Source of the DNA: Oceanospirillaceae bacterium
GTDB taxonomy: Bacteria; Pseudomonadota; Gammaproteobacteria; Pseudomonadales; Oceanobacteraceae
Reading direction: 5' to 3'
DNA: 64,000 nt
Assembly: GCA_002723385.1 (NCBI GenBank)
Contig: PBNY01000069.1
Location: forward strand, 24,331-88,330
Shown here: positions 17,260-61,292 of the stretch, in pieces
How positions within the stretch are numbered: position 1 is the first letter of the stretch
Layout: the number at the start of each line of letters is the position of its first letter
The notes under the pieces: generated by a model
What the model saw: only the letters and a program-made list of their open reading frames with translations
Database searches by the model: none
Told to the model about the DNA's origin: nothing
Program-made: the position numbers and the translations under genes

Positions 17260-17285
17260 CCAGTGGATAAAGAGAAGCTGCTGTC

Positions 17286-20774: not shown

Positions 20775-20784
20775 AGATGACGCT

Positions 20785-26131: not shown

Positions 26132-26236
26132 GGGCGTTTTCAATTGGTGAATCGCCCCTGGAAAAACACGAGGGGTTGCTGAGGTATTAATCATCAGCAG
26201 CCAACGTATGGCGAAGTGGCATAAGGGTAAAGACAC

Positions 26237-29227: not shown

Positions 29228-29234
29228 GTGAGCA

Positions 29235-33903: not shown

Positions 33904-33909
33904 CGAGTT

Positions 33910-34320
33910 ATGTTTGCCAATACTCAAGGCGGTGCGATGAGCATGGCCATGCCGGACATCTGCAAGTTTCCAACACCTTCACCGGCCGGACCGATTCCAA
34001 CCCCCATGCCATACCCGAATATGGCAATGTCGACCATGGCGGTCCCGAATTTCACAAAATGGATGATTCTGGGGATGCCTGTGCATAATCTGGGAACCAC
34101 AATCACCATGACCAGCGGTGATGAACCCGGCGTTTTGGGCGGGGTTGTTTCCAACATGATCAAGGGCCCTTGCAAGCATTTGAAAGGCAGTACCAAGGTA
34201 CTGGCCGGGGGAATGCCTGTGACCAGAATGCTTGACCAGACAGGCCAGAACGGTGCGGCTCCCAACGCCATGGGGACGACCATGAAACCGGCGCAAACCA
34301 AAGTCATGATCATGTCCTGA
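33910..34320 (+). CDS. PAAR-like spike-tip protein (DUF4150 family) without toxin extension
   Basis: 136 aa. MPDICKFPTPSPAGPIPTPMPYPNMA is the DUF4150 signature. The protein ends right after the PAAR-like fold. Confidence 0.8.
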   Translation: MFANTQGGAMSMAMPDICKFPTPSPAGPIPTPMPYPNMAMSTMAVPNFTKWMILGMPVHNLGTTITMTSGDEPGVLGGVVSNMIKGPCKHLKGSTKVLAGGMPVTRMLDQTGQNGAAPNAMGTTMKPAQTKVMIMS

Positions 34321-35693: not shown

Positions 35694-35762
35694 TCAGAAC
35701 CTGCGACTGTTATGGCGGAACCTGATACGGGCAATGAGCGGCATTACTGCACGGAATCTGAC

Positions 35763-37258: not shown

Positions 37259-40200
37259 ATGAAACATATCCTGAGAAAAGATCTGGCTGGCTTGATTCCC
37301 AGTTCGGTAATGCTGAGGCAAGGGCGAGCTTTATTGCTGCTGTTCTGCGCCTTGATTCTGACGGCCTGTGGTGGCGGGGGCAGCGGTTCCAATACCGAAA
37401 GTGGAGCCAACGGTTACGAAATCCAGATTACCCAGCACGACCAGGATAACGACAACCTGGGTGGCGATCTGCGCAAGGCCGAGTCCATTACGGTCGCTGT
37501 GTTCGAAGAAAACACCGACATTCGTGATAACTGTACCTACCTGTCGGATGACCGGCAGTCGTTCGAGTCCGACCCCTTCACCTGGACGCTCGTACCCGAG
37601 GATATGGCGACGCTGAGTGCAACGACCGCCTGTAATGTCAGCTTGGTGGCGGACAAGGCCGGGGAATTTACCCTCACGGCCAGTAATCGGGCACGCACTG
37701 TTGTTCGAACCATTCGTGTTGACCCGGCGTTACTGACCTCCATTACCGTAACGCCAGATACTGGATCGGTGTACAAGGGCCTGACCCAGGATTTCCAGGC
37801 GGTTGGCAATTACAGCGACAATACTCAGGTGGATCTTACCGATCAGGTTGCCTGGACATCGGCATCGCTCAGCCCTGCGGATCAGACTCTGGTTGAATTT
37901 GATGATCAAAATGCCGGTCATCTGACGGGGCTGGAAGAAGGAACCCTGAACGTGTCAGCCAGTTTGGCCAATGACCTGGGGACCACTGTCACGGGCGCGG
38001 TTCCGTTTGAAGTGACTCCGGCAGCGGTTGTCAGCATTGCACTGGAATCGACGCTGGTGGTCCCGCTTGGCAGAGAGCTGGCCATGAACGCCAGCGTGAC
38101 CTTCACGGATCAAAGCGTCCAAAATCTGGCTGGCGATGTCGTCTGGAATATTGCCGATGAAACCATCGCCAGTATTGACGCCGATGGACAATTCAAGGCC
38201 CTGAAAGAGGGGACAACGGAATTATTCGCCACCCGTGATAACAATTACGGCGTACTGATTACCTCCAACACCGTCGCAGTGACGGTTGAACCCCGTTTGC
38301 TCGATAGCCTGAAGCTGGCACCACTGAACGACGAAGTGGACCAAACCGCCCCGGTCATTGCGATCGACAAGACGGAAGCGTTCTCTGTGGTGGGCACCTA
38401 CTCCACGGGCGAAACGGAAGATTTTACGGCTGACAGCTCCGTCACACTGGCCTCCAGCGATACCGCAGTGGCTACTTTTACGGTCAGTGGTACACAAAAT
38501 CTGGTGGGGACTCTGATTGTCGGGAATACCGAGCTGACCGCAACGCGTTTGAATCGCCGTAATGAAGCGGTCGTTGGCCGACTGAACCTGGAAGTGAACC
38601 GCCCAACTCTGGTTCGCATAGATCTCACCAGCCCGCTACAAGCTGGCGACAGCTTTGCCAAGGGTGACAGCATTACCTTGCAAGCCATCGGTCATTACTC
38701 GGACGAATCCACTCGTGATGTCAGCTCTCATACCCAGATCGAATGGCAAAGCCAAACCTCTGGTGTGGTCGACTTTCTTAATGGTGTGACTTCTCCGATT
38801 TTGACGGCGGTACAGATAGGTGCCGGTCAGGTTACGGCCAGCATGGTGAACGAGGAAAGCCAGAGGATCACCAGTAACACACTGGATTTCAGCATCGTTC
38901 CACCGGTGGTTCGCAGTGTACGAATTGATTCAGTTAACGATGGGCAGCTCACCAACAATGCCTTGCGTCTGCCTCAGGGGCTGAGTCATAACCTGCAGCT
39001 GACTGGCATCTTCAGTGATAACAGAGAGGCGGCTCTTCCCGGAGTGAACTGGACTGGCAATAACGATGCATTGGCAACAGTTAACAGCGGTGGCGTTGTG
39101 ACGGCCACCAAAACGGCCGGACAGCTTGGTGATCTGACCATTGCTGCTGCTGTCGAAGCCGATGGAGCCCAGTTCAATGACCAGATCACGACCACTGTCA
39201 CCGAGCCGATTCTGACAAGTCTGGTGGTCGAGCTGGATGGTGACAGCGGTTTCTGGAAAGGACGGCAACAGGATTTCAAGGCAACCGGACGTTTTTCCAA
39301 TGACGAGGAGCGTGTCCTGACGGATCAGGTGAATTGGACGCTGCGCGCTGATGACGCCAACCGGGTGACTCAGTTGAGCAACCCTGAACAGCTCAGTCTG
39401 GACAACGAAGGTGAGGTGCAATTCAGTGCCACCTATACCGATCCTGCTAACGACAATGAAACGACCACCACCCGATATACCTTTACGGTCAAGCCAGCCT
39501 TGCTGGACTCAATTACCGTAGAAGCCAAAAACGAGTTTGGTCTAACTGTGTCGGATGTACCGAGTGGCAAGCAGCAGCAATTTACCGCAACCGGTACCTA
39601 CAGCGATGGCACGACCCAGGTGCTGACAACTCAAACCTCCTGGGCATCCAGTCTTCCGGCATTTCTGAGTATTGTGGCCAGTGGCAACCAGGCTGGACTG
39701 GCGACCGGTGACACACCGACTTCGGACAGCGATGTTCTGAACGTATCTGCCACTCTGACCAACGCCGCTGGTGTCAGTGTTGTTGGGACCTTGCCCTTTG
39801 CCGTGGCTCCCGCAGAGCTGATCAGTACTTATCTTCAGCTGCCTGCTGTCAATCAATACGGTGGAGACATTCCGTTGGGTGCCAGTGAAGGTCTGGATCT
39901 GATCGGCACCTATTCTGACGGTCTGGATCGCCCGATTGACGCATCGCTGGCGGTTTGGTCGAGCAGTCATACGGATATCGCCACTGTGGGTGAATTTACC
40001 GGCCTCGTGACGGCCGTAGCGGGCCAATCTGTACCGACGTCGTTCACTATTACGGCAACGGAGCAGCGTTCAGGCAAACTGCTGCAAGCCAGCTTTACGC
40101 TGCAAACGGCCAAGCCCATATTTGAGTCCATCCGGATCGATCCTGATACAAGCAATGCCGCCTGGCTGGTTGCGGAAGGTGGACAGCGTCAGTTCCGTGC

Positions 40201-43200
40201 CTATGCGGTCTTTACGGATGCCAGCGAACAGGAAATTACTGCCGATATCGCATCAGGCAGCGTGACGGAAACCCTTTGGTCAATACCGGATTCGAGCCAG
40301 ACCAATGTGGTGATGGTGGATAATCGCGCCGGTTTCAAGGGGTTGGTGACCGGTATTCTGTCGGCACCGACGCAGGAAAATACGCTGACGGTATCCAAAG
40401 TGAATAGCCGGGGCTGGAATATTGCTGCCAACGCCCGAATTGTGGTCGGCGATGCCATCCTGACCGCAATCGAAATCAAACCCAATGCAGTGGATCTGGT
40501 GTCTGGTGATGATCAGGCTCTGACTGCCAATGGCATTTTGACCAATAACACCCAGATTGATTTGACCACCCAGGTGCTTTGGAGCAGTCGACGTCTGGAC
40601 GTGGTGAGATTTAATTCGGTACAGCCGAGTCTGGCGGAAGCGACGGGGGCGGGGACATCTCTGATCAGTGCAACCTATCCGGCGCAAAATGGACAGGATG
40701 AAGTGGTTGGTTATCGACAAATCAACGTTGAAGCCAAAGCACTGCGTACATTGACAATCACACCAGCGGTTTCGCGCACCAGTACCTCGCCAGATACTCG
40801 TGCACTGTTCCTGTTGGGTCTGGGTGACCAGCTCACCGCGACCGGTATCTTCTCGGATAGCACTACAGAAAATCTCAGCAGCAACGTCACCTGGAGCAGT
40901 GACCGCACGGATATTGTCACCGTCAGCAGTACTGGCTTATTGGTGCCGGTTGCTGTGGGAGATGCATTGATCACCGCAGAGCAGGACATCGTTGAGTTGG
41001 GTGTTTCCAAAACCATCCGGGTTGAATATCCGGTTCGGGTTGGAACGCCGCTGCTGCAGTCTATCGAACTGGAGCCGCAATCGCCGACCATTCCAGACAG
41101 TACGCGCAAGGCGTTCACCGCATACGGTCGTTACTCCGATGGTACTCGGGTGGACATTACCCAGCAGGTGGATTGGAAGACCGGCTTCCTGGTGGGAGAA
41201 GACCCGGCACAAAAAGTAGGCGTGGTCAGCGATACCGTTGCGGGTAGCGGCGGCGGTATTTTCACTGCCCAGCGCGAAGGGCAAATCTCGGTTTCGGCTG
41301 AACTGGTGAATCAGGACAGCGATACCATTTCATCTTCCACCATTATCACGGTGGTGGGGCTGACCGGACTGGAACTGGAGCTGGATCAAACCACACTCTA
41401 TAAAGGACAGTCAGCAACGCTGCGAGCTTACGGCCTGCTGAGCGACGGCACCCGAGCGCTGTTTGATGATGGCGTCAGCTGGACGCTGCAAACACCGACC
41501 ACACTGACCATCGATACGCTTTCGGATACCTCGGAGCTGACCGTGAATGCCATCGCCAGTGGCAATGCACAGATCGATGCCAGTCGCACCCTGATTGACG
41601 GCACGGTGTTGAACGCCAGTTGGACGCACACGGTTCAGGGGCCGTTGCTGGATCGTATTACCACCGGCATTGATGTGAATGCGGTTCCCAAGGGCATGAC
41701 GCGACAGTTGTCTGCTACCGGACATTACTCGGATAACTCCACGGCTGATCTGACCAGCTCAGTGAACTGGAGCAGTTCCAATACAGCGCTGGCAACGGTC
41801 GATGCAGCTGGTGTTGTAACCGGGCACACGGAAGGTCAGCTGCGTTTGACGGCGACGCAAACCAATGCCGAAAGCCAGACCATTACCAGTGACGCGTTGG
41901 CTTTCACCGTGGAGCCGAAAACCCTCAAGGCACTGGCGATAACCCCCACCGATCCGAGTGTGGCTTTGGGACGCCAGCAGCCATTCTTGGTGAGCGGCAC
42001 CTACAGCGACGATACCGTGGCGGCCAGTGTAACGTCAGGGCTGGTATGGCAAAGCAGCGATACCAGTGTCGCCATCGTCGATGCCAACGGCCTTGTCACG
42101 ACTCTGACGCAGGGGCAAAGCACCATTGAGGCGCGTATTCCTGCAGCCTTGACCACGGGTTCTGGGCCGCTGGACATCTCATCGAGCACAACGTTGACGG
42201 TCAGTGCTCCGGTTCTGAATCAGATCAGTCTGGCCAATATGCCAACCAGTCTGGCGGATGGTCAATCCCGTCAATTGCAAGTCAATGGCACGCTGTCAGA
42301 CGGTTCATCAGCAGGCGCTCTGGCCGCCACCCGTGTTAGCTGGTTCAGCAGCAACAGTGCGGTTGCCAGCGTCAGTGCTCAGGGTTTGCTGTTGGCCAAA
42401 GCACCGGGGCAGGCCAGAATCCAGATCAGTACCATTCTCGATAATGGGGTGGAAGTGGTCGACGAGGCCGTTGTGGTTGTGACCGATAAAGTGCTGGAGC
42501 AAATCCATTTCTCACCCGCAACCTTGTCATTGGCTGGTGGGCGACAGGCTCAACTTACTGCCATTGGTACTTACAGCGACGGTTCGATCATTGATCCGCT
42601 TGAGCAAGGATTTATCTGGTCATCGGCTAACAGCTCGGTATTGCAGGTTTCCCCAACCGGCAAGGTGACGGCGAAATCGGTCAGCACCAATACCGATGTG
42701 GCGATTACTGCGACGAATACTGCCAGCGGTATTACCGTCACACCAGCCACCGTGACGGTTGAACCGGCGGTGCTGGATCAGTTGTTTATTGCCGGTAATG
42801 GCAGCAGCGTGGCAGTTGGCCAGACGCACACCTTCAGCGTGACTGGTCTGGATACGCTGGGTAACGCCATGACGGCGGCGGAAGTGGGTGCGGTGCAGTG
42901 GAGCAGCTCGGATACAACACTGGCGACCATGGATGCCAGTACAGGCGTACTGACGGCTCACAACACCGGGCGTGTCACCATCATGGTGTCGCAGCGAGTG
43001 GGCGCTGTGACGGTATTTGCCGAAGCCGACGTGCTGCTCGGTGATGCGGTGCTAACCGATATCGAAATTACCGCAGAAGACGGCACCGCGGCAGCGTCGG
43101 TGGCGTTGGGCATGCAACATACCTTCAGTGCCACCGGGGTGTACTCCGATGGCTCGCGCATCAGCAATCTGGATACCGGCTTCAGTTGGAGCCTGACCGG

Positions 43201-46200
43201 AGCGACCGGCAGCGCAGCGGGCGTGATCGATACCAACGGTCAGCTGACTCTGAATGCAGGTGCGGTAGGCGATACCCTTCAGGTGACTGCACTGCCATCC
43301 TCGTCTGGTACGTCTGTGACACAAGCCGCGACGGTTACTGTGGCTGCTGCCGAATTGATCAGTTTGACGATTCAGCAGAATGGCGCGGTGATTCCGGTAT
43401 GCCAGCTGGAATTGTCGAACTGTTCATCTCAGAGTCTGAGTCAAACACTGACTGTCACTGGCCAGGATTCGTCGGGCCAGACCGTTGCCAGCCCAACCGG
43501 TGTTAACTGGAGTGTGTCGGATACTCGTATTGCCACCATTAATGCCTCTTCTGGCGAGATCATTGGACTGACAGCCGGTGCTGTAGAAGTCACGGCTGAA
43601 GTACTGGTGGGCACACGTCAGGTGGTCGCTACCGCCACCTTGCTGGTGGGTGACTCCGAGCTGGTGGCGATTGAAGTACTCTCCGCCGCCGGAGAAAGCA
43701 CCATTGAAGTGGGACTGGGTTTACAGCATCCACTGACGGTACGAGGTCAGTACTCGAATCAGGCCGAAGTGACCGGCATTAGTGGCATCCAGTGGCAGGT
43801 AACGTCTACCGAAGCCAGCAATCAGGCAAGTGTGAACGCCGAAGGTCTGCTGACCGTTCATGCCGGGGTGGCTGGCACCACTCTGACTGTTACTGCAACG
43901 CACACCGCGAGCAGTCTGACGGACAGCCAGACCGTGACGTTGACCAGTGCCGATACGGTTGCCCTGAGACTGGTTGAAACGACCAGCAGTCTGCCGCTGA
44001 ACACCAACAATACGTTGACATTGGTACTGCAGGATTCACTTGGACAACTGTGTCGGGCAACCAATGTCGGCACCGCAACCGCCTGTACCGCATCACAGAC
44101 TTCCGGTTTGAGCTGGAGTGTGTCGGATGCGCGCATTGCGACGGTGGATCAAACCGGTGAACTGCTGGGCCTGAATCGGGGCAGTGTTCAGGTTCAGGTT
44201 CAGTTGCTTGCTGGCCCGGCCTATGATCAGCGCTTGCGGACAGCCACCGCGCTGGTGAATGTGGAAGGCCCGGCGCTGAGATCCATCAGTGTCGCTCCGT
44301 CAACGCTGAATCTGCCTGCGGGCATGCATTATCAAATGACGGCAACTGGCACTTACAGCGACGGCTCAACTGATAGCAATCTGGATAGCGGCTATACCTG
44401 GACGTCGGCTGACAGCGCAGTGGCCTTTGTATCGCCGACAGGTCTGGTCAGCGCCAACAGCGTCAGCAGTGACACTGACGTGGCAATCAGCGTTGTACCG
44501 ACTGACAGCTCGGTATCGGTGTCGGCAGCGACGGTGACCGTTCAACCAGCGGTGCTGGATCAGCTGTTTGTTTCCGATAACGGCAGCAGTGTTGCCGTTG
44601 GCCAGACGCATACCTTCAGCGTGACTGGTCTGGATACGCTGGGCAACGCCATGACGGCGGCTGAAGTGGGTGCGGTGCAGTGGAGCAGCTCGGATACAAC
44701 TCTGGCGACCATGGATGCCAGCACAGGCGTACTGACAGCTCACAACACCGGGCGTGTCACCATTATGGCGTCGCAGCAAGTGGGCACTGTGACGGTATTT
44801 GCCGAAGCCGACGTGCTGCTCGGTGATGCGGTGCTGGCAGGAATTGAAATTATCGCCGAAGACGGTACCGCAGCAGCGTCGGTGGCGTTGGGCATGCAGC
44901 ATACTTTCAGTGCAACCGGGGTGTATTCCGATGGCTCGCGCATCAGCAATCTGGATACTGGCTTCAGCTGGAGTCTGACCGGAGCGACCGGCAGCGCAGC
45001 GGGCGTGATCGATACCAATGGTCAGCTGACTCTGAATACCGGTGCAGTAGGCGATACCCTTCAGGTGACGGCACTGCCATCCTCGTCTGGTACTTCTGTG
45101 ACACAAGCCGTGACGGTCACCGTGGCTGCTGCCGAATTGATCAGTTTGACGATTCAGGAAGCCGGTGTGGTCGTACCTGTCTGTCAGCTGACGGACAGTG
45201 AATGCATCAATGCCAGCCTGAGTCGCACATTCACCGTCAGTGGTCAGAATTCCGATGGCCAGACTGCCAGCAGTGTGACGGGAGTGAGCTGGAGCGTGTC
45301 GGATACCCAGATTGCCAATATCAACTCGCAGACCGGTGAGCTGATTGGCCGGGCCAGTGGCAGTGTTGAAGTGACCGCCGAGGTCAGCGTCAGCGGGCGT
45401 TTGGTATCGGATACTGTTGCAATTCTGGTTGGTGAAGCCGGGTTGACCGGGATTGATATCCAGTCAGCCGTGCAGCAATCGACACTGGAAGTCGCAATTG
45501 GCTTGCAGCATCCGCTACAAGTGATGGGTACCTACTCCAATCAGGCGCAAGTCAGCGCACTCATCGGCATCGAATGGCAGGTGACATCGACTAATGCCAG
45601 CAATCTGGCCTTTGTGAACAGCAACGGTGTCTTGACTCTGTTTGCCGGAGTGTCTGGCAGCACACTGACGGTGACCGCAACACACTCGGAAAGCGGTTTG
45701 AGCGACTCTGTGTCGGTGTCGGTCACTGATGAAGAAATTTTGTCGCTGGCCATCAAGGAATCCAGCACCGTGATGGCGTTGGGCACCACACAAACCCTGA
45801 CGCTGAGCCTGCAGGATTCACTCGGACAAAACTGTCTGGTGACCAATGTGGGTAGCGGTACTGCCTGCTCCTCGGCGCAAACGTCGGGTCTGAGCTGGAG
45901 TGTGTCCGATAGCAACATCGCCTCAATTGATCAGAACGGCCAGATTCAGGCTCTTAACGAAGGCACCGTGCAGATTCAGGCACAGTTGGTGGGTGGCGTT
46001 GCCTACGACCAGCGTGTGTTGAATGCCACCGCGACCGTGGTGGTTGGGGATGCGGAACTGAGTGCCATCAGTCTGTCGCCATCGCTGACCAGTCTGGCTG
46101 CAGGGACCCAGCAGTCCATGACGGTGACGGGGACCTTCACCAACGGTGTGTCAATGACGCTGGTGAATACCGACTTCAACTGGAGCGTCAGCCAATTACC

Positions 46201-47524
46201 AACCGGGGCGGCTGTTACCGTGACACCAACCGGTTTGATTCAGGTGACCAATGGCCCGAATGCCGGTGTAACTGATCCTGTGGAAGTAACGGCAGCCTAT
46301 CGGGATGACTCCTCAATCACTGCCAGCCAGACCTTTACGGTTGGCGATGCTCAACTGGCCAATATGACCATTGGTCAGGCGGGATCGAGTGTTGCTGTGG
46401 CAGGTACCTTGTCACTCACCGTTTCCGGTACGGATACCCAGGGCCAAACGGCAAGCGCTGCCATGCTATCGGGTGTTAGCTGGACGGTATCGGATACCGC
46501 GATTGCCCGCATTGATCCCAGCTCCGGTGTTTTGACGGGTGTGGCCGAAGGTCAGGTGACGGTCTTTGTGGAACAGGACCTGGGCACGGCTGGCATCGTC
46601 ACCACGCAGGCGCAATTGCTGGTGGGCGCAGCTGATGTGGCCAGCATTCGCATTGATACTCCATCGCAAACCTCGGTTGCAGAAGGGTTGCAGTTACAGC
46701 TGAGTGCAACGCTTGTTTACGATAATGGCGTTGAATTGCCCGTCTCTGAAGGCTTGAACTGGGCTATTGCCTCGGAACCGGCCAGCAGCGATATCGTGAT
46801 CAGCAGCAGCGGTTTGCTGACCATCAACAGCTCGGCCTGTGCCGGGCAAGCCGGATGTGAGTTAACGGTGGAAGTGACTCATACCGACTCCGGTGAAACC
46901 TCAACGGCCCAGACCATCACCATTGCAGACACTGAAATCGTATCGCTGGCAATCCAGGAACACGGCCAGATCGTTGCGGTCGGTTCGGATCTTGATCTGA
47001 CCGTTCTGGGGCAAAATGCGGATGGCACCAGCGCTACACTGACCAGTGCCAATGTGGTGTGGTCGGTTTCCGATGCCTCGCTGGCATCCATCGATCAGAC
47101 CGGCAAACTGAGCAGCCTGGCAACCGGCAGCGTGACCGTACAAATCAGCAAGGTGGTTGGCCTGAACACCAGTCCGCGTACTGTGGTTGCCGAGGCGACG
47201 GTGATTCTGGGCAGCGCCACACTGACGGATTACAAGGTCAGCACGTCCGGCGGTGCCGATTTTGTCAGCCTGAAAGTCGGTGATGAGCAGGACTTCTCGG
47301 TTGAGGCTACCTACAGTGATGGCCAGACCGTGGCGGATGTGACCTCCGGTTACAGCTGGAGCACCGATGCTATTACCGGAGAAACAGAACCGACACTAAC
47401 CATCACTGCCGACGGTACGGTTACGGTACAAAGTGGTAATGTCGGTGACAAAACCCGTATTACGATATTGCCGAGCAGTGGCTCTGCAACGGTACAGCCA
47501 GCAACGCTGGAGGTCTCGAACTGA
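37259..47524 (+). CDS. Giant surface-adhesin-like lipoprotein built from Big_2 (bacterial Ig-like group 2) modules
   Basis: 3421 aa. The N-terminus is ...RALLLLFCALILTAC followed by GGGGSGSNTESG, that is a lipobox plus a Gly/Ser tether; an alternative start M18 lies at 37310. The rest consists of ~90-100-aa modules with the Big_2 hallmark, for example ITVTPDTGSVYKGLTQDFQAVGNYSDNTQVDLTDQVAWTSAS. From the length there are on the order of 35 modules, which I did not count individually. There are no RTX nonapeptides and no autotransporter or intimin barrel. Confidence 0.9.
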   Translation: MKHILRKDLAGLIPSSVMLRQGRALLLLFCALILTACGGGGSGSNTESGANGYEIQITQHDQDNDNLGGDLRKAESITVAVFEENTDIRDNCTYLSDDRQSFESDPFTWTLVPEDMATLSATTACNVSLVADKAGEFTLTASNRARTVVRTIRVDPALLTSITVTPDTGSVYKGLTQDFQAVGNYSDNTQVDLTDQVAWTSASLSPADQTLVEFDDQNAGHLTGLEEGTLNVSASLANDLGTTVTGAVPFEVTPAAVVSIALESTLVVPLGRELAMNASVTFTDQSVQNLAGDVVWNIADETIASIDADGQFKALKEGTTELFATRDNNYGVLITSNTVAVTVEPRLLDSLKLAPLNDEVDQTAPVIAIDKTEAFSVVGTYSTGETEDFTADSSVTLASSDTAVATFTVSGTQNLVGTLIVGNTELTATRLNRRNEAVVGRLNLEVNRPTLVRIDLTSPLQAGDSFAKGDSITLQAIGHYSDESTRDVSSHTQIEWQSQTSGVVDFLNGVTSPILTAVQIGAGQVTASMVNEESQRITSNTLDFSIVPPVVRSVRIDSVNDGQLTNNALRLPQGLSHNLQLTGIFSDNREAALPGVNWTGNNDALATVNSGGVVTATKTAGQLGDLTIAAAVEADGAQFNDQITTTVTEPILTSLVVELDGDSGFWKGRQQDFKATGRFSNDEERVLTDQVNWTLRADDANRVTQLSNPEQLSLDNEGEVQFSATYTDPANDNETTTTRYTFTVKPALLDSITVEAKNEFGLTVSDVPSGKQQQFTATGTYSDGTTQVLTTQTSWASSLPAFLSIVASGNQAGLATGDTPTSDSDVLNVSATLTNAAGVSVVGTLPFAVAPAELISTYLQLPAVNQYGGDIPLGASEGLDLIGTYSDGLDRPIDASLAVWSSSHTDIATVGEFTGLVTAVAGQSVPTSFTITATEQRSGKLLQASFTLQTAKPIFESIRIDPDTSNAAWLVAEGGQRQFRAYAVFTDASEQEITADIASGSVTETLWSIPDSSQTNVVMVDNRAGFKGLVTGILSAPTQENTLTVSKVNSRGWNIAANARIVVGDAILTAIEIKPNAVDLVSGDDQALTANGILTNNTQIDLTTQVLWSSRRLDVVRFNSVQPSLAEATGAGTSLISATYPAQNGQDEVVGYRQINVEAKALRTLTITPAVSRTSTSPDTRALFLLGLGDQLTATGIFSDSTTENLSSNVTWSSDRTDIVTVSSTGLLVPVAVGDALITAEQDIVELGVSKTIRVEYPVRVGTPLLQSIELEPQSPTIPDSTRKAFTAYGRYSDGTRVDITQQVDWKTGFLVGEDPAQKVGVVSDTVAGSGGGIFTAQREGQISVSAELVNQDSDTISSSTIITVVGLTGLELELDQTTLYKGQSATLRAYGLLSDGTRALFDDGVSWTLQTPTTLTIDTLSDTSELTVNAIASGNAQIDASRTLIDGTVLNASWTHTVQGPLLDRITTGIDVNAVPKGMTRQLSATGHYSDNSTADLTSSVNWSSSNTALATVDAAGVVTGHTEGQLRLTATQTNAESQTITSDALAFTVEPKTLKALAITPTDPSVALGRQQPFLVSGTYSDDTVAASVTSGLVWQSSDTSVAIVDANGLVTTLTQGQSTIEARIPAALTTGSGPLDISSSTTLTVSAPVLNQISLANMPTSLADGQSRQLQVNGTLSDGSSAGALAATRVSWFSSNSAVASVSAQGLLLAKAPGQARIQISTILDNGVEVVDEAVVVVTDKVLEQIHFSPATLSLAGGRQAQLTAIGTYSDGSIIDPLEQGFIWSSANSSVLQVSPTGKVTAKSVSTNTDVAITATNTASGITVTPATVTVEPAVLDQLFIAGNGSSVAVGQTHTFSVTGLDTLGNAMTAAEVGAVQWSSSDTTLATMDASTGVLTAHNTGRVTIMVSQRVGAVTVFAEADVLLGDAVLTDIEITAEDGTAAASVALGMQHTFSATGVYSDGSRISNLDTGFSWSLTGATGSAAGVIDTNGQLTLNAGAVGDTLQVTALPSSSGTSVTQAATVTVAAAELISLTIQQNGAVIPVCQLELSNCSSQSLSQTLTVTGQDSSGQTVASPTGVNWSVSDTRIATINASSGEIIGLTAGAVEVTAEVLVGTRQVVATATLLVGDSELVAIEVLSAAGESTIEVGLGLQHPLTVRGQYSNQAEVTGISGIQWQVTSTEASNQASVNAEGLLTVHAGVAGTTLTVTATHTASSLTDSQTVTLTSADTVALRLVETTSSLPLNTNNTLTLVLQDSLGQLCRATNVGTATACTASQTSGLSWSVSDARIATVDQTGELLGLNRGSVQVQVQLLAGPAYDQRLRTATALVNVEGPALRSISVAPSTLNLPAGMHYQMTATGTYSDGSTDSNLDSGYTWTSADSAVAFVSPTGLVSANSVSSDTDVAISVVPTDSSVSVSAATVTVQPAVLDQLFVSDNGSSVAVGQTHTFSVTGLDTLGNAMTAAEVGAVQWSSSDTTLATMDASTGVLTAHNTGRVTIMASQQVGTVTVFAEADVLLGDAVLAGIEIIAEDGTAAASVALGMQHTFSATGVYSDGSRISNLDTGFSWSLTGATGSAAGVIDTNGQLTLNTGAVGDTLQVTALPSSSGTSVTQAVTVTVAAAELISLTIQEAGVVVPVCQLTDSECINASLSRTFTVSGQNSDGQTASSVTGVSWSVSDTQIANINSQTGELIGRASGSVEVTAEVSVSGRLVSDTVAILVGEAGLTGIDIQSAVQQSTLEVAIGLQHPLQVMGTYSNQAQVSALIGIEWQVTSTNASNLAFVNSNGVLTLFAGVSGSTLTVTATHSESGLSDSVSVSVTDEEILSLAIKESSTVMALGTTQTLTLSLQDSLGQNCLVTNVGSGTACSSAQTSGLSWSVSDSNIASIDQNGQIQALNEGTVQIQAQLVGGVAYDQRVLNATATVVVGDAELSAISLSPSLTSLAAGTQQSMTVTGTFTNGVSMTLVNTDFNWSVSQLPTGAAVTVTPTGLIQVTNGPNAGVTDPVEVTAAYRDDSSITASQTFTVGDAQLANMTIGQAGSSVAVAGTLSLTVSGTDTQGQTASAAMLSGVSWTVSDTAIARIDPSSGVLTGVAEGQVTVFVEQDLGTAGIVTTQAQLLVGAADVASIRIDTPSQTSVAEGLQLQLSATLVYDNGVELPVSEGLNWAIASEPASSDIVISSSGLLTINSSACAGQAGCELTVEVTHTDSGETSTAQTITIADTEIVSLAIQEHGQIVAVGSDLDLTVLGQNADGTSATLTSANVVWSVSDASLASIDQTGKLSSLATGSVTVQISKVVGLNTSPRTVVAEATVILGSATLTDYKVSTSGGADFVSLKVGDEQDFSVEATYSDGQTVADVTSGYSWSTDAITGETEPTLTITADGTVTVQSGNVGDKTRITILPSSGSATVQPATLEVSN
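42749..43375 (+). repeat. Near-identical repeat copy 1 (two Ig-like modules)
   Basis: It aligns base-for-base with 44531-45157 at an offset of 1782 nt, with only scattered substitutions. At protein level I count about 12 differences in ~209 residues. Confidence 0.9.
44531..45157 (+). repeat. Near-identical repeat copy 2
   Basis: Partner of 42749-43375, for example GQTHTFSVTGLDTLGNAMTAAEVGAVQWSSSDTTLATMDASTGVLTAHNTGRVTIM in both copies. The flanking modules of the same super-repeat are far more diverged. Confidence 0.9.
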
Positions 47525-48480
47525 TGAAATATCGGGTGTTTGAGTGGAATTTGTGGAGTAGCCCAATGCGGTCTTTACCGAGAGTGCTGGCCCTCGTGGC
47601 TGTGTATATTGCACCGCAGCTGCACGCTGTGGAGGAACCGAACGTCAATCTCGATTTGCCTGTGACGTTTAACATGGTGCTCAATGCCTTGCCAGACGCC
47701 GCCGATGCCTATGTGCGTCTGGAGCGTGACATCGGACAGCTAGAAAATCTGATGCGCAATGCCGAACGCACGCACAGTGCAGCGGTGAGCGAATATACCC
47801 GGTACAAAGAGCGTTCGGATAATGCTTACAACCAGAACGATAGCTTCCGGCTGTTTCGTCAGCTGGATCAAAAGCAGGTTCAGCAGAACATTCGCACCAC
47901 GGTGTATGACCTCAACCGCTTGCAGCGCAAACTGAATCAGTCCATGAGCCAGTACGAAGCCCTGAAACAGCAGGTGTTGTTCGCCTATATCGAAAAAAAT
48001 CAGGTACCGGTGGCGCAACTGCATCAGCATTTGCTGGACGGTGAACCGGTCGCCTTGCTGCCGAGCCAGTATTCGGAAGTGTTGGAATATCTGCGCAGTC
48101 TTGAAAAGAAACCGGCTCATCTTGCCAGAGCGCTCGACAATGCCAGTGTGATGGCGATCCTGCCGGACCACATCAAGGAGCAGTTACTGCTGCTGAAAGA
48201 GTCGGGCGTCTCCATGTCCCAGGCTCTGTCGCGCCCCGATATCCTTCAGGTTGTGGTGGCTAATCTGGATATGGGCGATGCACGCGTCAGTGATGAGGAG
48301 GACCTCAGTGTGCTGAGTGTTTACCGAACCGAAACGGCGTTTCAGGAGGTGGATGTCCAGGCCACACCGTTGCAGCTGAGCAGCTACCTGGATGCGTACA
48401 TGGTCGAGATGAACGATCTGGTTGAACTCTACGATCTACCGGTGCCTTCCGAGGCGGTGATCGATGCCGCTCAGCCCTGA
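47524..48480 (+). CDS. Secreted coiled-coil protein of unknown function
   Basis: 318 aa. The ATG overlaps the TGA of the giant gene by 1 nt; an alternative start M15 at 47566 gives a cleaner signal peptide (MRSLPRVLALVAVYIAPQLHA/VEEP). The central part is Gln/Arg/Leu-rich and heptad-like. I recognise no family. Confidence 0.6.
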   Translation: MKYRVFEWNLWSSPMRSLPRVLALVAVYIAPQLHAVEEPNVNLDLPVTFNMVLNALPDAADAYVRLERDIGQLENLMRNAERTHSAAVSEYTRYKERSDNAYNQNDSFRLFRQLDQKQVQQNIRTTVYDLNRLQRKLNQSMSQYEALKQQVLFAYIEKNQVPVAQLHQHLLDGEPVALLPSQYSEVLEYLRSLEKKPAHLARALDNASVMAILPDHIKEQLLLLKESGVSMSQALSRPDILQVVVANLDMGDARVSDEEDLSVLSVYRTETAFQEVDVQATPLQLSSYLDAYMVEMNDLVELYDLPVPSEAVIDAAQP

Positions 48481-48524
48481 ATGACACGACCGATAACAAT
48501 AACGATCAGGAATCCGATCCTCTC

Positions 48525-49907
48525 ATGCGTTCACATACCAGCCCTCTTGCTGCATCCCTGTTAGTTGGTCTGTTGTTATCAGGAGCCGCACAGGCTGAGC
48601 AGGAAACCGAAAGTGAAGCCACACCAGCCTGGCAGATGTTGTCTGTTAGCCAGCTGAATGACCGTATCCTCAAGGCCACCAAAGAAGTTAATGCCAAGGA
48701 GTACGCCATCGCCTGCAGTGAGCTGCTACTCCTGCCTCAGGAAGTGCACGAGTTGCAACCACAGCTGACCTACAACACCTGGTTCTTGTTGGGGCAGTGT
48801 CACGCTGGACTGGGTCTCTACCCGGAAGCACGAAGCTATTTTCGCAAAGTTGTTGAAGCTGATCCAACGGCGGCCAGACCTCGTCTGGATCTGGCACTGG
48901 TGGAGCAATATCTGGGTAACTTCAGCGCTGCCAACGAGCAGTTTGATTATCTCCGCGATGACGAGGAATTGCCGGAAGAGATTCAGGATAAAGTCGATGC
49001 CATCTATGGTCAGCGGCCCGACCGCCTACGCTACTTTATTGAAGGCTATTTCGGCACATTGACCGATTCCAACATCAACTATGGCCCGGAATCAGACGTC
49101 ATTCGTATTTACGACAAGGACTTTGTCTTTAATCGGGAATCCCGCCCAATCTCCGGTAACGGCACCAATCTTGGTGCCCGTCTGTCGCTGGAAAAACTGC
49201 TGGACAGGGATACACGGCTCAGTGGTCGTTTGAGTCTCGATACGGTGACCTACACCGATAACGAAGATTTCGACAGCAGTATTCTGGATCTGAACTTCGC
49301 CTGTCGGCAGAAGTTATGGAGCGGCGAATACATGATCCAGCCGCGCTATGCCTCGGTCAAGCTGGGAGAAAGTACGCTCTTCACCGTGATGGGACTGGAC
49401 GGCGGATACGCCTGGCTACAGGGCGACAACCTGAGGCTGACCGGGCTGCTGGGCTATAAAAATTACACCTACAGCACCGATGACCGCCGGAATACCGGCG
49501 AGATCAAACCGCAGTTTCTGGCCAATTATCGCTATTCCGGCAAGCTTATTTTTAACGGGCGTCTGGGCTATGCACTGGGCAGTGCATCGGAAGAATCCTA
49601 CAGCTATACCGATCTCGAACTGGGCGCTGGACTAGACTACGCCTTCAGCTCAACGCTGATGTTGAGCCTGAACTATGAAATGAGCAGCACCAGCTACAGC
49701 GCGGAGCTTGAAGGCTTCGATACCGTGCGCCAGGACGACCGCACCAAGCTGAGTGCGGAACTGAGTTACAACCTGAAGCAGCTGGGCGAGTTTTTCAAAC
49801 GCTTCAACATTGATGCAGGCATGCGCGAATACACGAACAGCTCCAACGTAGCGTTGTTCGAAAACAGCCGCACCCAAACCTACATCACCCTGCGCGCGAC
49901 ACTGTGA
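48525..49907 (+). CDS. Outer-membrane protein with N-terminal TPR-like region and C-terminal beta-barrel; Slam/DUF560-like
   Basis: 460 aa with signal peptide ...LLLSGAAQA/EQE. A TPR-like stretch is YNTWFLLGQCHAGLGLYPEARSYFRKVVEADPTAARPRLDLALVEQYLGNFSAANEQF. It is followed by ~12-14 amphipathic beta-strand candidates (RLSGRLSLDTVTY, LRLTGLLGYKNYTY, LIFNGRLGYALGS, LMLSLNYEMSS, TQTYITLRATL). The size and TPR+barrel layout match Slam proteins. The family assignment is not verified; I give about 0.45 for Slam specifically. Confidence 0.7.
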   Translation: MRSHTSPLAASLLVGLLLSGAAQAEQETESEATPAWQMLSVSQLNDRILKATKEVNAKEYAIACSELLLLPQEVHELQPQLTYNTWFLLGQCHAGLGLYPEARSYFRKVVEADPTAARPRLDLALVEQYLGNFSAANEQFDYLRDDEELPEEIQDKVDAIYGQRPDRLRYFIEGYFGTLTDSNINYGPESDVIRIYDKDFVFNRESRPISGNGTNLGARLSLEKLLDRDTRLSGRLSLDTVTYTDNEDFDSSILDLNFACRQKLWSGEYMIQPRYASVKLGESTLFTVMGLDGGYAWLQGDNLRLTGLLGYKNYTYSTDDRRNTGEIKPQFLANYRYSGKLIFNGRLGYALGSASEESYSYTDLELGAGLDYAFSSTLMLSLNYEMSSTSYSAELEGFDTVRQDDRTKLSAELSYNLKQLGEFFKRFNIDAGMREYTNSSNVALFENSRTQTYITLRATL

Positions 49908-50170: not shown

Positions 50171-51070
50171 TCACTCCCCGGATGTCGGCATATCCAGTGT
50201 GATCAGCCGCAGTTCACCCATAAACTCACGGGCAGCCGGGCCAATGTGATCCTTGTCCTTGTAGTTCATATAGAAGCTGGCGGAGCGGGTAGCGCCTTCT
50301 TTCAGTGACAGTCGTTTGAGCTGACCACTGGCAAGCGCATCGCTGATGGCCGGGAACGGCAGCCATGCGTAGCCCATGCCGGATTGCACCAGTTCGATCG
50401 AAGCGCGCATGTTGCTGACGGTCCAGCGTTGCTCTGCGCCCAGCCATCCGGCGCTGGTTTTGTTTTGTGTGGCAGAGTCGCGCACGATTATCTGGCGGTA
50501 GGATTTCAGATCTTCATACGTCAAGGTTTTGCCGAGCTGATGTAACGCATGGTGTGGATGAGCCACGGCGACGAACTCCAGCAGGCAGAGCTCTTCGTTC
50601 AGGTTGGTGTCCATCGGGAATGGCGACAGGGCAATATCGGCATCGCCGTCCTGAATCAGCTCATTGCTGCCCGACAGCACGGTGTCGATGATGTCGAAAT
50701 GCACCTGCGGGTAGAGCGCCGAGACTTTCTCCAGGGTCTGAAACACGATCTTCTGTGGAAAAGCCCCATCCACGGCAATGCGCAATTCCGGTTCAACGCC
50801 ACTGCTCAGCGATTGGGCAACCGCTTCGATGCGATCCGCTTCTTCGAGCAGGTATTCCCCCCGCCGCAATAACAGCTCACCCGCTTCCGTCAGTACCGCC
50901 TTGCGGCCCGAGACTTCGAACAGCTTCACTCCCAGCGACTCTTCCAGCTTGCCCACGGCGTGATGAACGCTGGATTGGCTCTTGTGAACCTGAAGTGCAG
51001 CCTGATTAAAACCGCCTGCAGTAACGACGGCTCTGAACATACGCCATTGTTCCAGGGTGGTTCTTTGCAT
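50171..51070 (-). CDS. LysR-family transcriptional regulator
   Basis: I prefer the ATG at 51070 (299 aa). The HTH region is MQRTTLEQWRMFRAVVTAGGFNQAALQVHKSQSSVHHAVGKLEESLGVKLFEV, and a LysR substrate-binding domain follows. Confidence 0.85.
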   Translation of the reverse strand: MQRTTLEQWRMFRAVVTAGGFNQAALQVHKSQSSVHHAVGKLEESLGVKLFEVSGRKAVLTEAGELLLRRGEYLLEEADRIEAVAQSLSSGVEPELRIAVDGAFPQKIVFQTLEKVSALYPQVHFDIIDTVLSGSNELIQDGDADIALSPFPMDTNLNEELCLLEFVAVAHPHHALHQLGKTLTYEDLKSYRQIIVRDSATQNKTSAGWLGAEQRWTVSNMRASIELVQSGMGYAWLPFPAISDALASGQLKRLSLKEGATRSASFYMNYKDKDHIGPAAREFMGELRLITLDMPTSGE

Positions 51071-51216
51071 AGCGGGGTCTGCTCTGTGGATGGGTGATGG
51101 GAGAGTGTAGCACTCTGATGTTTCCGGGCGGGATCGGGTGAGACTTCGGTCAGACATCAATGCGGTTCCCTTGGCCTATTCAGCGGACAGGGGAATTTCC
51201 AGAGTTAAGGGAGGGG

Positions 51217-52149
51217 CTATTGAATCGCGCTCAGGATTTTCTGGAAAGTCGCCATTTCGTCATCACTGAATGACTCAAACACGGCTTGCTGGCGGTCGAT
51301 GGAAATCTTCCACAGGGCTTCTGCCTGAGCATTTCCGGCGCTGGTCAGCGACAGGGAATCGTCAGACTGGGCAACCCATTCCTTGCGCTTCAGAGTTTCC
51401 AGTGCAGCGTACAGGTCCTGATCCGGCATACCGATCAGTTGCTCCAGAGACTGTGCGCTCATGGAACCGACGTCATTGAGCGTCATCAGCATTCTGGCTT
51501 CAATGGTTCGCAAGCCGGTAGCCAGTTGCAGTGGCTGGTAGGAGGCCTGATAGCGTCGCACCGCCTGAATCATCTGAAAATACAGATTGTTCTCAAGCAG
51601 TTTTTCCGTGATGCCGCTGGCGTCGGTCTCTGCCACCTGGGGCTTGGCTCCAGAGTGTGGAATCACAGCGGAATAGGCGCCACCATGATAGAGCAGAGGC
51701 GAACGGCCAACGTCGTCAAAGGCAACCACCTTGCCGATCAGAATCCAGTGGTCACCGCCGTCGATGCGTTCATGGTTTTCACATTGGAATCGCGCAGAAC
51801 AGTCAGGCAGCAGTGGCGCGTTACCCACGCCGTTTTCGTAATCGACGCTGGCGAACTTGTCATCTGACGGCCTTGCGAAGTGGTTCGACAGGTTGATCTG
51901 ATCTGCGGCCAGAACGTTCACCGCAAAGTGACTGGCCTGATCGAAAATTTTCACACTGGCTGAGCTTTTCATGATGCTCCACAGCACCAGTGGCGGATCC
52001 AGTGAGACTGAATTAAAGCTATTGGCGGTGACACCGGCCTTGTCGCCGTCCGGGGTACAGGCGGTGATCACGGTCACACCGGTGGCGAAGTTACCCAGTG
52101 CGGCGCGCAGTGCCTTTGGATCAACCGCTTCTGAAATTTGAGAGGACAT
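51217..52149 (-). CDS. Flavin reductase (HpaC/C1-like) fused to a C-terminal MarR-like winged-helix domain
   Basis: I prefer the ATG at 52149 (310 aa). The N-terminal flavin-reductase fold includes LGNFATGVTVITACTPDGDKAGVTANSFNSVSLDPPLVLWSI and DGGDHWILIGKVVAF. The C-terminal ~130 aa look MarR-like (GLRTIEARMLMTLNDVGSMSAQSLEQLIGMPDQDLYAALETLKRKEWVAQSDDSLSLTSAG). Confidence 0.8.
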   Translation of the reverse strand: MSSQISEAVDPKALRAALGNFATGVTVITACTPDGDKAGVTANSFNSVSLDPPLVLWSIMKSSASVKIFDQASHFAVNVLAADQINLSNHFARPSDDKFASVDYENGVGNAPLLPDCSARFQCENHERIDGGDHWILIGKVVAFDDVGRSPLLYHGGAYSAVIPHSGAKPQVAETDASGITEKLLENNLYFQMIQAVRRYQASYQPLQLATGLRTIEARMLMTLNDVGSMSAQSLEQLIGMPDQDLYAALETLKRKEWVAQSDDSLSLTSAGNAQAEALWKISIDRQQAVFESFSDDEMATFQKILSAIQ

Positions 52150-52229
52150 GGCAATTCTCCGAAAGAGTGGCAACCCATCTAACGCAAATTAGATGGGCAT
52201 TGAAATACAGCCCGGTTAGAACCTGGCGA

Positions 52230-53753
52230 TCAGCTCAGTACCGGGGTTTTCCAGCCGTCGACGTCGTACTCGCTCATGCACTTCTCAGACAGCTCACGCA
52301 TTTGCTTCATGGTGCCCATACCGCGAGCGGCACCCAGACATTGCAGGCGCACAGCGTCAGCGGTGCCGGAGTAGTTCAGCTCGTACAGGTGATGACGACC
52401 ACCGAATTCGGAACCAATGGCGTCCCACAGCAGCTTCATGACCTTGATGCGCTGGGTGTGTGGAATGTCGCCGGAGCTACGGCAGTAGCGTGACAGCAGC
52501 GTATCCAGATTTTCGTTTTTAAGGTCGAGGTTGCTGCCTGGCAGGTAAATAAGGCCACTGGCTGCGGTGGTTTTGATGATGTGGTAAATCTTGTCGTAGG
52601 CCACCGGAGCGAACGCCCGATAGTTGAAGGCGGATTCTACTGGCGGCAGGTAGGCTCCGGACTTCCATTCCTGAGACGCCAGACACATGTGGTCTGTGAT
52701 CGACCAGAACAGGTTACGCCAGGCCACCACGTCTCCGAGTTCGGCGGAGACGTTACGGAAGTCGATGGCGCCGGTGCATTCCAGCGCCTGCTCCAGCAAA
52801 CCGGCGAGGAAGTCCAGTTTCACGGCAAAACGGGTACAGGCTTGCAGCGGGTACAAACGACCGAATCCGGCGGCGTTGATCCACTGGGTCAGCTTGGCCT
52901 TGTCCTTGTAAATCAGCACGTCTTCCCACGGAATAAACACGTCTTCCAGGATCAGGATAGCGTCGTTTTCGTCAAAACGGGAAGACAGCGGGTAGTCGAA
53001 CGGCGATGAGGTATCGGTGGCGTTTTTCTCGTAGGACACACGCGAGATCAGCTTCAGACCCTTGGCGTTCATCGGTGTGATAGCCAACAGCGCCATGTCC
53101 GGGTCATCACCAATTTCCTGAACCGCCGCCTGACCGATGAAGTTGTAGTGGGTCAGTACCAAGTTAGTAGCGACCACCTTGGCACCGGTGACGTAGATGC
53201 CCGCGTCTGTTTCCTTGGTGATGTGAATGTACACATCTTTCACTTCGTCGCTGGACTTGTTGCGGTCAATTGGCGGGTTAACAATGGCGTGGTTCAAGTA
53301 CAGGCAGTTTTCCTGAATGCGCTTGTACCAGCTGCGGGCGTTATCGGCGAAGTCGCCATAGTATTCGGCATTGGCACCCAGAACGTCACCAAAGGCTGCC
53401 TTGTAGTCGGCGGTACGTCCCATCCAGCCATAACTCATACGAGCCCATTCTGCGACGGCGTCACGTTGCTCCAGCAACTCTTGCGGCGAACGGGCGTAAC
53501 GGAAGAACTTGTGGGTGTAACCACCGCTGCCGGTATCGGTTTCCCAGCACAGCTTGTCCTTGGTTTCGGGGTTATGCAGGGCATCGTACATGGAGGCAAT
53601 GGTCAAAGCCGCATTGCGGAAGGCCGGGTGTTCGGTGACGTTCTCGACGTGTTCACCGGCGTAATACACTTCACGACCATCGTTCATACTGGCAAGGAAT
53701 TCCTTGCCGGTGAATGGACGTCCGGATTGCTGGATATGGCTTTCAGGCTTCAT
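52230..53753 (-). CDS. hpaB: 4-hydroxyphenylacetate 3-monooxygenase-family oxygenase component (HpaB-type, FADH2/FMNH2-dependent)
   Basis: I prefer the ATG at 53753 (507 aa). The N-terminus FTGKEFLASMNDGREVYYAGEHVENVTEHPAFRNAALTIASMYDALH and the overall length are typical of HpaB. It sits 80 nt upstream of the reductase gene. Confidence 0.8.
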   Translation of the reverse strand: MKPESHIQQSGRPFTGKEFLASMNDGREVYYAGEHVENVTEHPAFRNAALTIASMYDALHNPETKDKLCWETDTGSGGYTHKFFRYARSPQELLEQRDAVAEWARMSYGWMGRTADYKAAFGDVLGANAEYYGDFADNARSWYKRIQENCLYLNHAIVNPPIDRNKSSDEVKDVYIHITKETDAGIYVTGAKVVATNLVLTHYNFIGQAAVQEIGDDPDMALLAITPMNAKGLKLISRVSYEKNATDTSSPFDYPLSSRFDENDAILILEDVFIPWEDVLIYKDKAKLTQWINAAGFGRLYPLQACTRFAVKLDFLAGLLEQALECTGAIDFRNVSAELGDVVAWRNLFWSITDHMCLASQEWKSGAYLPPVESAFNYRAFAPVAYDKIYHIIKTTAASGLIYLPGSNLDLKNENLDTLLSRYCRSSGDIPHTQRIKVMKLLWDAIGSEFGGRHHLYELNYSGTADAVRLQCLGAARGMGTMKQMRELSEKCMSEYDVDGWKTPVLS

Positions 53754-53940
53754 CTGAGTACTCCGTTCAATTCTGGGTTTTATTCTTGTTGGCGTGATAA
53801 CGAAGATCAGGTTACGCAATCAGAACGGAGGAGCCTGTCCTCCAAAAATGAGGACAAGCCTTGGGCTGGCGTAAATTGGAACAGGCTTTGAACCTGAGCG
53901 GAAACAAGCTTGTGAGCATGAGCTGAAACAGAAAAAGAAC

Positions 53941-61188: not shown

Positions 61189-61292
61189 TGTGGAAAGTTA
61201 AAGAAACTTCGTGACTTTTGTCGTTATGGTGCGTGCGTTAGACTGAGGCAGTTTCGCTCATCAGCAATAACTGGCAGGAGCTGTATCGTTCT

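Follow-up and report, generated by a model that had tools for sequence, protein, structure and literature searches.

A marine gene module in which a Slam-family outer-membrane protein is linked to a giant immunoglobulin-repeat lipoprotein and to an apparently barrel-less relative of type XI secretion cargo

The closest described relatives of the system considered here are the outer-membrane proteins (OMPs) of the type XI secretion system (T11SS), namely Slam1 and Slam2, NilB, HrpB, HsmA and TepS, and like the OMP at the centre of this article these are Sec-dependent proteins of about 450–500 amino acids (aa), with an N-terminal periplasmic tetratricopeptide repeat (TPR) region, a 14-strand C-terminal barrel and a gene that lies beside that of the presumed client or clients. 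A C-terminal 8-strand barrel is held to be the unique, defining and specificity-determining feature of T11SS cargo (PMC12282271; 10.1101/2023.03.15.532718). Outside the animal-associated cluster no cargo is known for the majority of T11SS OMPs, and the neighbourhoods of the marine cluster 3 systems, from Rhodobacteraceae/Roseobacteraceae, rarely encode barrel cargo, DUF1194/vWA proteins having been proposed as alternative cargo; this cluster has raised the question of non-canonical T11SS cargo, possibly adhesins (PMC12282271). Here we describe a module of three genes in a window of 64,000 nucleotides (nt) from the metagenome-assembled genome of a marine Oceanospirillaceae bacterium (contig PBNY01000069.1; positions below refer to this window), in which a T11SS-family OMP is encoded downstream of a giant lipoprotein composed of bacterial immunoglobulin-like (Ig) Big_2 domains and of a secreted helical protein that appears to derive from T11SS cargo and to have lost its barrel. 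The OMP belongs to a known family, while its pairing with a giant Big_2 lipoprotein appears to be undescribed: neither this pairing, nor the helical companion family, nor barrel loss within a family was found in the T11SS papers and supplementary tables that we searched.

An earlier note, made from the letters of the sequence alone, had seen three open reading frames (ORFs) of 3421, 318 and 460 aa on one strand, had taken the last for a Slam-like OMP and had coupled it to the first, a lipoprotein with a Gly-rich tether; the ORFs are as described, the lipobox and its Gly/Ser tether are there, the linkage of the three genes is conserved, and the family assignment has held up well. The OMP gene (48525–49907, + strand) encodes 460 aa, with an ordinary Sec signal (residues 1–24) and no lipobox in a rule-based scan, a TPR-like helical domain at about 41–162 and a barrel at 169–459. 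Pfam PF04575, SlipAM (formerly DUF560), matches residues 173–416 with an E-value of 4.1e-8 and 33.5 bits, the curated cut-off being 22, and there are TPR matches at residues 84–140, of which TPR_2 passes (29.0 bits for a cut-off of 27, residues 85–115) and further TPR models score just under their own cut-offs. The Slam-specific TPR model, PF24575, gave no match in the window OMP and weak matches only in two homologs, L001 and P0008. In NCBI the protein is present as the identical entry CMI09_10855, and its 60%-identical ortholog in Oceanobacter mangrovi goes by the name ‘surface lipoprotein assembly modifier’. Among five other module OMPs that were scanned, four pass the SlipAM cut-off (L004 34.7, L006 42.6, L010 32.0 and L011 24.0 bits), and that of L001 is slightly under it at 20.6. 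The most remote homolog recovered, P0009, with about 23% identity, scores 72 bits for SlipAM, also matches TPR_Slam and adjoins a canonical 788-aa TbpB_B_D cargo protein.

Since PF04575 also captures some 16-strand porins of the PgaA/HmsH kind (PMC8406197), the structure of the OMP was modelled. The AlphaFold2 model, built with 9 aligned sequences, has a mean predicted local distance difference test score (pLDDT) of 84, rising above 90 in the barrel, and consists of helices over residues 41–162 followed by exactly 14 long beta-strands over residues 169–459. In a Foldseek comparison the best barrel superpositions were with the 14-strand OmpG (template-modelling score, TM-score, of 0.67–0.73); the top match by E-value was BcsC, yet with a TM-score of 0.40, its rank being due to the TPR-plus-barrel layout that the two proteins have in common. 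No solved T11SS OMP was found by Foldseek of the model against the PDB, and a sequence search of the PDB with the OMP returned designed TPR proteins and no solved Slam. Of the points on which the earlier note had let its proposal hang, those of a DUF560 match and a barrel of no other family thus came out in its favour, and the OMP is a member of the T11SS/Slam family with a TPR region and a 14-strand barrel.

The order of giant Big_2 gene, middle gene and OMP gene recurs in seven lineages, and the giant lies upstream of the other two wherever that DNA was readable. Besides the window, these lineages are L008/L009, from Tara metagenomes, with giants of 3421 and 2827 aa; L006; Oceanobacter mangrovi SM2-42 (L010; NZ_JAHXZR010000002.1, around 436–457 kb), with a giant of more than 3291 aa; L001–L003, with one of 4011 aa; and L004 and Psychrosphaera aquimarina KCTC 52743 (L005/L011; NZ_JAWCUA010000001.1, around 298–319 kb), both of which have a form of the middle protein that bears a barrel. 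The flanks of the module differ, and include CRISPR-Cas, DsbD/thioredoxins, a Dyp peroxidase and an SMC-like ATPase elsewhere and LysR/HpaBC genes in the window; the same order amid unrelated flanks means that the arrangement is not due to chance and that the three genes travel as a unit. Their divergence from the window copies also runs in parallel, with identities, listed in one order, of 88, 70, 60 and 56% for the OMP, 77, 60, 52 and 50% for the middle protein and 67, 58 and 56% for the giant (no figure for the second comparison), and the OMP is intact across the barrel-less clade, down to 54% identity. There were two isolates in the genome scan, and in both the giant gene extends past the 10-kb flank; a second metagenome scan, with the middle-protein profile, returned only a 2.1-kb fragment, and the DNA of the 5' end of L001 had no exact match in the metagenome contigs searched. 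On the JGI contig of L001 the module is followed (14985–21446) by a CRISPR-Cas locus with two Cas1/Cas2 pairs, Cas6 and an NE0113-family protein, so that the genomic context there is quite different. In Psychrosphaera the giant gene is split (L011 43–9872) into a run of at least three ORFs (695, 1847 and 699 aa), as a result either of pseudogenisation or of frameshift errors in a repetitive draft assembly.

The middle protein is the surprise of this module, and its gene call needs a word. The earlier note had the stop of the giant gene overlapping the start of the middle gene; this is right for the longest ORF (47524–48480, + strand, 318 aa), where stop and start share 1 nt (TGATG), and wrong for the probable start at Met15. 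That methionine (47566) is the start position in most of 11 aligned homologs, it has a GGAG 7 nt upstream and it gives the protein a clean Sec signal (MRSLPRVLALVAVYIAPQLHA, with VEE following), all of which points to a protein that is probably of 304 aa (47566–48480) and to a gap that is probably of 41 nt after the giant gene. Between the middle gene and the OMP gene there are 44 nt, and scans for promoters and terminators gave no more matches than shuffled sequence would lead one to expect.

By prediction the middle protein is secreted by Sec, and it has no lipobox in the rule-based scan; no Pfam or NCBIfam family was found for it. Its AlphaFold2 model (pLDDT 70.5) has an antiparallel helical hairpin, residues 43–84 and 92–145, and a small helical bundle, residues 149–232. 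The most conserved stretch of all, residues 237–296 (48274–48453, + strand), is yet the one modelled with the lowest confidence (pLDDT 35–48); it reads VLSVYRxETAF ... LDAxMVEMNDLVELYDLPVPS and ends in the motif DLVELYDLPVPS, and the window protein itself stops 10 residues past the LYDLPVPS motif. These residues may be the equivalent of the beta ‘pedestal’ of T11SS cargo, or a segment that folds upon binding a partner. Foldseek gave no significant match to the fold of the model, all E-values being 1 or more, and neither a chaperone of the Skp or prefoldin type nor a membrane-fusion-protein hairpin came up significantly, which leaves a dedicated Skp-like chaperone unsupported.

When 1.84 billion representative proteins were searched exhaustively with HMMER, the middle family came out as just 9 clusters at 50% identity, with nothing weaker beyond them, and four of the nine have a longer architecture, of 475–516 aa. 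In these long forms the conserved segment directly precedes the additional part: after the motif LY[DE]xPxPS there is a linker and then a domain of about 130 aa ending in ...GSFFGxxAxExGGVW...GRFKAK. A profile of the shared domain recovers the long forms at E-values of 5e-64 to 2e-34, and the window protein is 30–35% identical to them over about 280 residues. Pfam PF01298, TbpB_B_D, aligns with the extension along its entire profile, and FHBP_C matches it more weakly; the TbpB_B_D scores are 26.6 bits in P0018, which reaches the cut-off of 26, 25.6 in P0042, 24.3 in P0038 and 21.9 in P0043. When a profile of the extension from five lineages was run against all PDB sequences there were 10 matches, and 9 of them are established Slam/T11SS cargo, namely hemophilin (E 0.0098 and 0.032), TbpB, HpuA and LbpB, matches that are individually weak and jointly specific; a narrower profile picked out TbpB, LbpB and NHBA. 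The assignment of a cargo barrel to the long forms thus draws on near-threshold but mutually consistent matches, and we regard it as probable. In the orthologous modules L004, L005 and L011 it is this TbpB_B_D-type protein that lies directly upstream of the OMP.

Homology of its N-domain to that of barrel-bearing proteins suggests, then, that the middle protein of the window is cargo-derived and that its barrel has been lost. A neighbour-joining tree built on the shared domain, which is a rough one, puts barrel forms on deep branches and barrel-less forms in two derived groups, with a remnant of the linker still present in a short form, P0040; most simply, the barrel would be ancestral in the family and would have been lost at least twice independently. 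A barrel does not seem to be hiding nearby: when all six frames of the 64-kb window were searched with a hidden Markov model (HMM) of the family’s barrel domain, the best match had an E-value of 0.012 and lay in the ORF of an unrelated DcaP-like porin. In a tblastn search against plasmids the middle protein had no match. The earlier note had offered this protein as a possible periplasmic chaperone or adaptor, and the idea that it is simply a chaperone sits badly with its kinship to the N-domain of proteins with a canonical T11SS cargo barrel.

The giant lipoprotein (37259–47524, + strand) has 3421 aa. It begins MKHILRK...LLLLFCALILTAC-GGGGSGS, the signal peptide and lipobox (37259–37369, + strand) ending in LLFCALILTAC, with a lipidated Cys37 predicted by the PROSITE-style lipobox rule and the tether GGGGSGS after it. 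Pfam finds Big_2 alone (324.7 bits) and no other domain, and a repeat HMM derived from the protein itself counts 34 tandem Big_2 domains over residues 76–3414, which leaves a tail of 7 aa and so no room for the C-terminal 8-strand barrel of a Slam substrate that the earlier note had hoped to see there. All the giant orthologs likewise end in a Big_2 domain. The giant is colinear with its Oceanobacter mangrovi ortholog at 58% identity, and we saw no other export signal in it, nor the C-terminus of an RTX protein or of a type 1 secretion system (T1SS) substrate. The ortholog in L009 keeps the lipobox, as LMLTAC-GGGSSDSG, and the N-termini of the remaining orthologs lie beyond the DNA that was retrieved. 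A homolog search with the N-terminal 350 aa returned only generic Big_2 proteins of 225–609 aa and did not recover the query itself, so the index searched seems to be one without giant proteins.

Within the giant, domains 18–23 and 24–29 (42494–46015, + strand) appear from their sequences to be an old duplication of a six-domain block. The pairs, offset by six domains, are 50, 93, 96, 60, 61 and 57% identical, so that two of them would have been homogenised to 93–96%, and at the DNA level there is a self-match of 632 nt (92%) with an offset of 1782 nt, or 594 aa. The length of the giant varies by the same unit: it is 3421 aa in the window and in L008 and 2827 aa in L009, which is exactly 594 aa, or six domains, less. 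This difference in copy number could be a true expansion or contraction of repeats, or a collapse of repeats in metagenome assembly. The middle protein is identical (314 aa) in L008 and L009 despite the six-domain difference between their giants.

How far, then, does the locus resemble what has been described before? As in other Slam/T11SS loci, the OMP gene sits beside presumed clients, one of them here a lipoprotein in which the cysteine is followed by a flexible Gly/Ser tether, and in sister modules the gene directly upstream of that of the OMP is for a protein with a barrel of the TbpB_B_D type. Unlike those loci, however, neither neighbour of the OMP in the window, giant or middle protein, has the C-terminal 8-strand barrel by which cargo, verified or predicted, is defined; the Ig repeats bring the lipoprotein to 3,421 aa, against the few hundred residues of verified cargo; there is no TonB, TonB-dependent receptor or metal/haem context in the module; and the OMP has little sequence identity with canonical Slam-like OMPs (about 23% with P0009), with PF24575 unmatched. 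Hemophilin-type soluble cargo (Hpl, HphA and HrpC) is matched by the long forms P0018, P0038, P0042, P0043 and P0044, which are likewise secreted by Sec and not lipidated, and are encoded just upstream of the OMP. The N-domain of the middle family is, in contrast, an all-alpha hairpin plus bundle with no detectable relative, rather than a beta ‘handle’ that binds haem, and the window copy has no barrel at all. With the marine cluster 3 loci the window shares a marine T11SS OMP and, as in most of those cases, the want of a neighbouring barrel cargo, but the module occurs in Gammaproteobacteria (Oceanospirillaceae, Oceanobacter and Psychrosphaera), the partners are a Big_2 giant and a helical protein rather than DUF1194, and the passage from barrel to no barrel can be seen here within one small family.

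The giant has parallels of its own. LigA and LigB of Leptospira are lipoproteins of tandem Big_2 domains (PMC7821625). The giant resembles them in its N-terminal lipobox and the tandem Big_2 array that follows, Lig being a surface-exposed adhesin, and departs from them in having 34 such domains. Lig proteins have about 12–13 and belong to a spirochaete envelope, with no linked T11SS OMP and an export route that is itself unclear. Intimin and invasin (type Ve) and the RTX/Bap-type adhesins (type 1 secretion) are, like the giant, long rods of bacterial Ig domains, and theirs are displayed on Gram-negative surfaces for adhesion. The former differ in that the Ig passenger and a 12-strand barrel, at the N-terminus, are one polypeptide, whereas the barrel here is a separate T11SS-family protein; with Big_2 domains only and the barrel encoded by another gene, the giant does not have the make-up of an inverse autotransporter. 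RTX adhesins, for their part, have no Sec signal and a C-terminal T1SS signal, whereas the giant has a lipobox for Sec and signal peptidase II and no T1SS C-terminus.

Our best account of all this, which we hold tentatively and at a little short of even, is that the three genes form a conserved, vertically co-diverging surface-display module around a T11SS OMP, that the OMP displays the giant and that the middle protein, itself of cargo descent, serves as adaptor or co-factor. The giant would receive its lipid at Cys37 and travel by way of Lol to the outer membrane; its 34 Ig domains, if as extended as those of other Big_2 arrays, would measure well over 100 nm, too much for the periplasm, and would be threaded to the cell surface. 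A rod of that length would need an outer-membrane translocon, and the T11SS OMP, being the sole outer-membrane barrel encoded in the module, is the likely one. In barrel-bearing lineages the middle protein would dock to the OMP by the canonical route, and in the lineage of the window it would act through its conserved segment (about 237–296), which the model leaves unfolded, probably by binding the TPR domain of the OMP or an Ig domain of the giant; the outcome would be a lipid-anchored fibrillar adhesin at the cell surface. As the OMP is kept where the barrel of the middle protein is lost, its conserved function is evidently not the barrel-dependent secretion of that protein. Several points weigh against the account. 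We infer translocation of the giant by the OMP from their linkage and from there being no other export device in the module; the canonical cargo-type protein of the sister modules is the middle protein and not the giant; and cargo of 3,421 aa would be several times the size of any verified T11SS cargo. Moreover, conservation of the lipobox is shown in one fairly close ortholog, that of L009, whose giant is 67% identical, and the last Ig domain of the giant, at 49% identity to its Oceanobacter mangrovi counterpart, falls under the average of about 58%, so that it does not look like a conserved cryptic export signal.

A more specific version of this account, a kind of split-cargo T11SS, is in our view unlikely but worth stating. 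In it the OMP would move a lipoprotein that has over 3,000 residues and no barrel, while the companion supplies targeting in trans, ancestrally by means of its own TbpB-type barrel and here by a barrel-independent contact of its C-terminal segment. The main rival, itself rather unlikely, has the middle protein as the sole client of the OMP, in the manner of hemophilin-style soluble cargo, and the giant either arriving at the surface in some other way or needing no route from the module; the giant would then be linked functionally, and the helical protein might cap, regulate or cross-link the adhesin or share a target with it, the barrel-less form still being recognised via the ‘pedestal’-like C-terminal segment that remains. 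The long forms do indeed have the layout of canonical soluble cargo (Sec signal, alpha-helical N-domain, linker and TbpB_B_D-type barrel) directly upstream of the OMP, the giant has no barrel, and in chimera experiments it was the barrel that directed T11SS specificity, with a possible contribution from a mid-protein beta-sheet (10.1101/2023.03.15.532718). Set against this, the OMP is kept in five barrel-less lineages, where recognition through the barrel cannot be the function retained, the giant is present in every module seen with no other outer-membrane export device encoded alongside, and a rod of 34 Ig domains would probably not fit in the periplasm.

It is quite improbable that the module is partly degenerate in the window lineage, loss of the barrel having ended canonical secretion and left the OMP and middle genes stripped of the function they once had or drifted to an unrelated one. 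The clean deletion of the barrel-coding segment, with 44 nt now between the two genes, would suit such decay, as would the failure of the family-specific HMM to detect a TbpB-type barrel in the 64-kb window and the three ORFs of the Psychrosphaera giant; but three intact genes that co-diverge at similar rates over five barrel-less lineages, to about 50–56% identity and with many invariant residues, bear the signature of purifying selection, and at least two independent losses suggest a viable alternative mode rather than decay. The remaining candidate, that the OMP is an exopolysaccharide exporter of the PgaA/BcsC/PelB kind, or a plain porin, in a biofilm locus beside an adhesin, we consider highly improbable. 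It can appeal to the inclusion of some PgaA/HmsH homologs in PF04575 (PMC8406197), to BcsC, a TPR-plus-barrel protein, as the top Foldseek match by E-value, and to weak EpsL and DUF2860 matches. However, the model has 14 strands and not 16, the TPR region is short at about 120 aa, BcsC aligns poorly and the best barrel matches are 14-stranded; the module encodes no glycosyltransferase or polysaccharide synthase, there are no polysaccharide synthesis genes nearby, and orthologous OMPs are encoded directly downstream of TbpB_B_D-bearing proteins.

Of the genes around the module, the one upstream of the giant deserves separate mention. It encodes a predicted lipoprotein with Sel1 repeats (35712–37217, + strand; a 501-aa ORF with a lipobox by the same rule, ...SMLITGC with Cys43), with 129.8 bits for Pfam Sel1 and weak NCBIfam matches of the AlgK/MotX/ExoR-like kind, and it ends 41 nt before the giant gene. 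In L009 (1–1462) the corresponding place, 42 nt upstream of the giant, is taken by a Sel1 protein of 492 aa, and the Sel1 protein may be a fourth component of the module, a periplasmic scaffold. Before it (34368–35693, + strand) lies a gene for a 441-aa protein with a solute-binding domain of the TAXI-TRAP type, in which a membrane anchor at the N-terminus, a further hydrophobic segment and a coiled-coil tail at the C-terminus make up a layout unusual for a solute-binding protein. This separates the Sel1 gene from a type VI secretion system block on the same strand (23451–34320, +), which comprises TssF, TssG, VgrG, DUF2169-pentapeptide, pentapeptide, DUF3540 and PAAR-like toxin-domain proteins and has short gaps to the genes that follow, including one of 47 nt to the next ORF. 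Within that block the G+C content falls to 0.43 at 28–32 kb (the 3' end of VgrG and the DUF2169 gene), from about 0.53, which suggests an acquired effector/adaptor cassette. On the other side a LysR regulator and a two-component 4-hydroxyphenylacetate 3-monooxygenase (50171–53819, − strand), convergent with the module and unrelated to it, mark its 3' boundary; the HpaB-2 oxygenase scores 820 bits, and its partner reductase has a C-terminal extension resembling a helix-turn-helix. Farther on, an HNH endonuclease gene is followed by one for a type I restriction HsdR (ResIII/EcoEI_R_C; 60229–63821, + strand), and the last 2 kb of the window are strongly skewed in AT (0.26), the GC skew there being −0.14.

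What makes the module attractive is that nature has in effect already done an experiment: the same three genes occur with the barrel, in Psychrosphaera and two metagenomic lineages, and without it, in the Oceanobacter/Oceanospirillaceae clade, and the OMP is conserved in both. Two questions can in this way be put to the test in culturable marine isolates, namely whether a T11SS can work without a cargo barrel and how large its cargo can be. If a companion does indeed stand in for the barrel of a giant lipoprotein, T11SS transport would be possible without a C-terminal barrel and for cargo several times the length of the known substrates, which bears on Slam-type display of very large passengers in biotechnology, and T11SS would join the known ways of presenting fibrillar Ig-repeat adhesins on Gram-negative cells.

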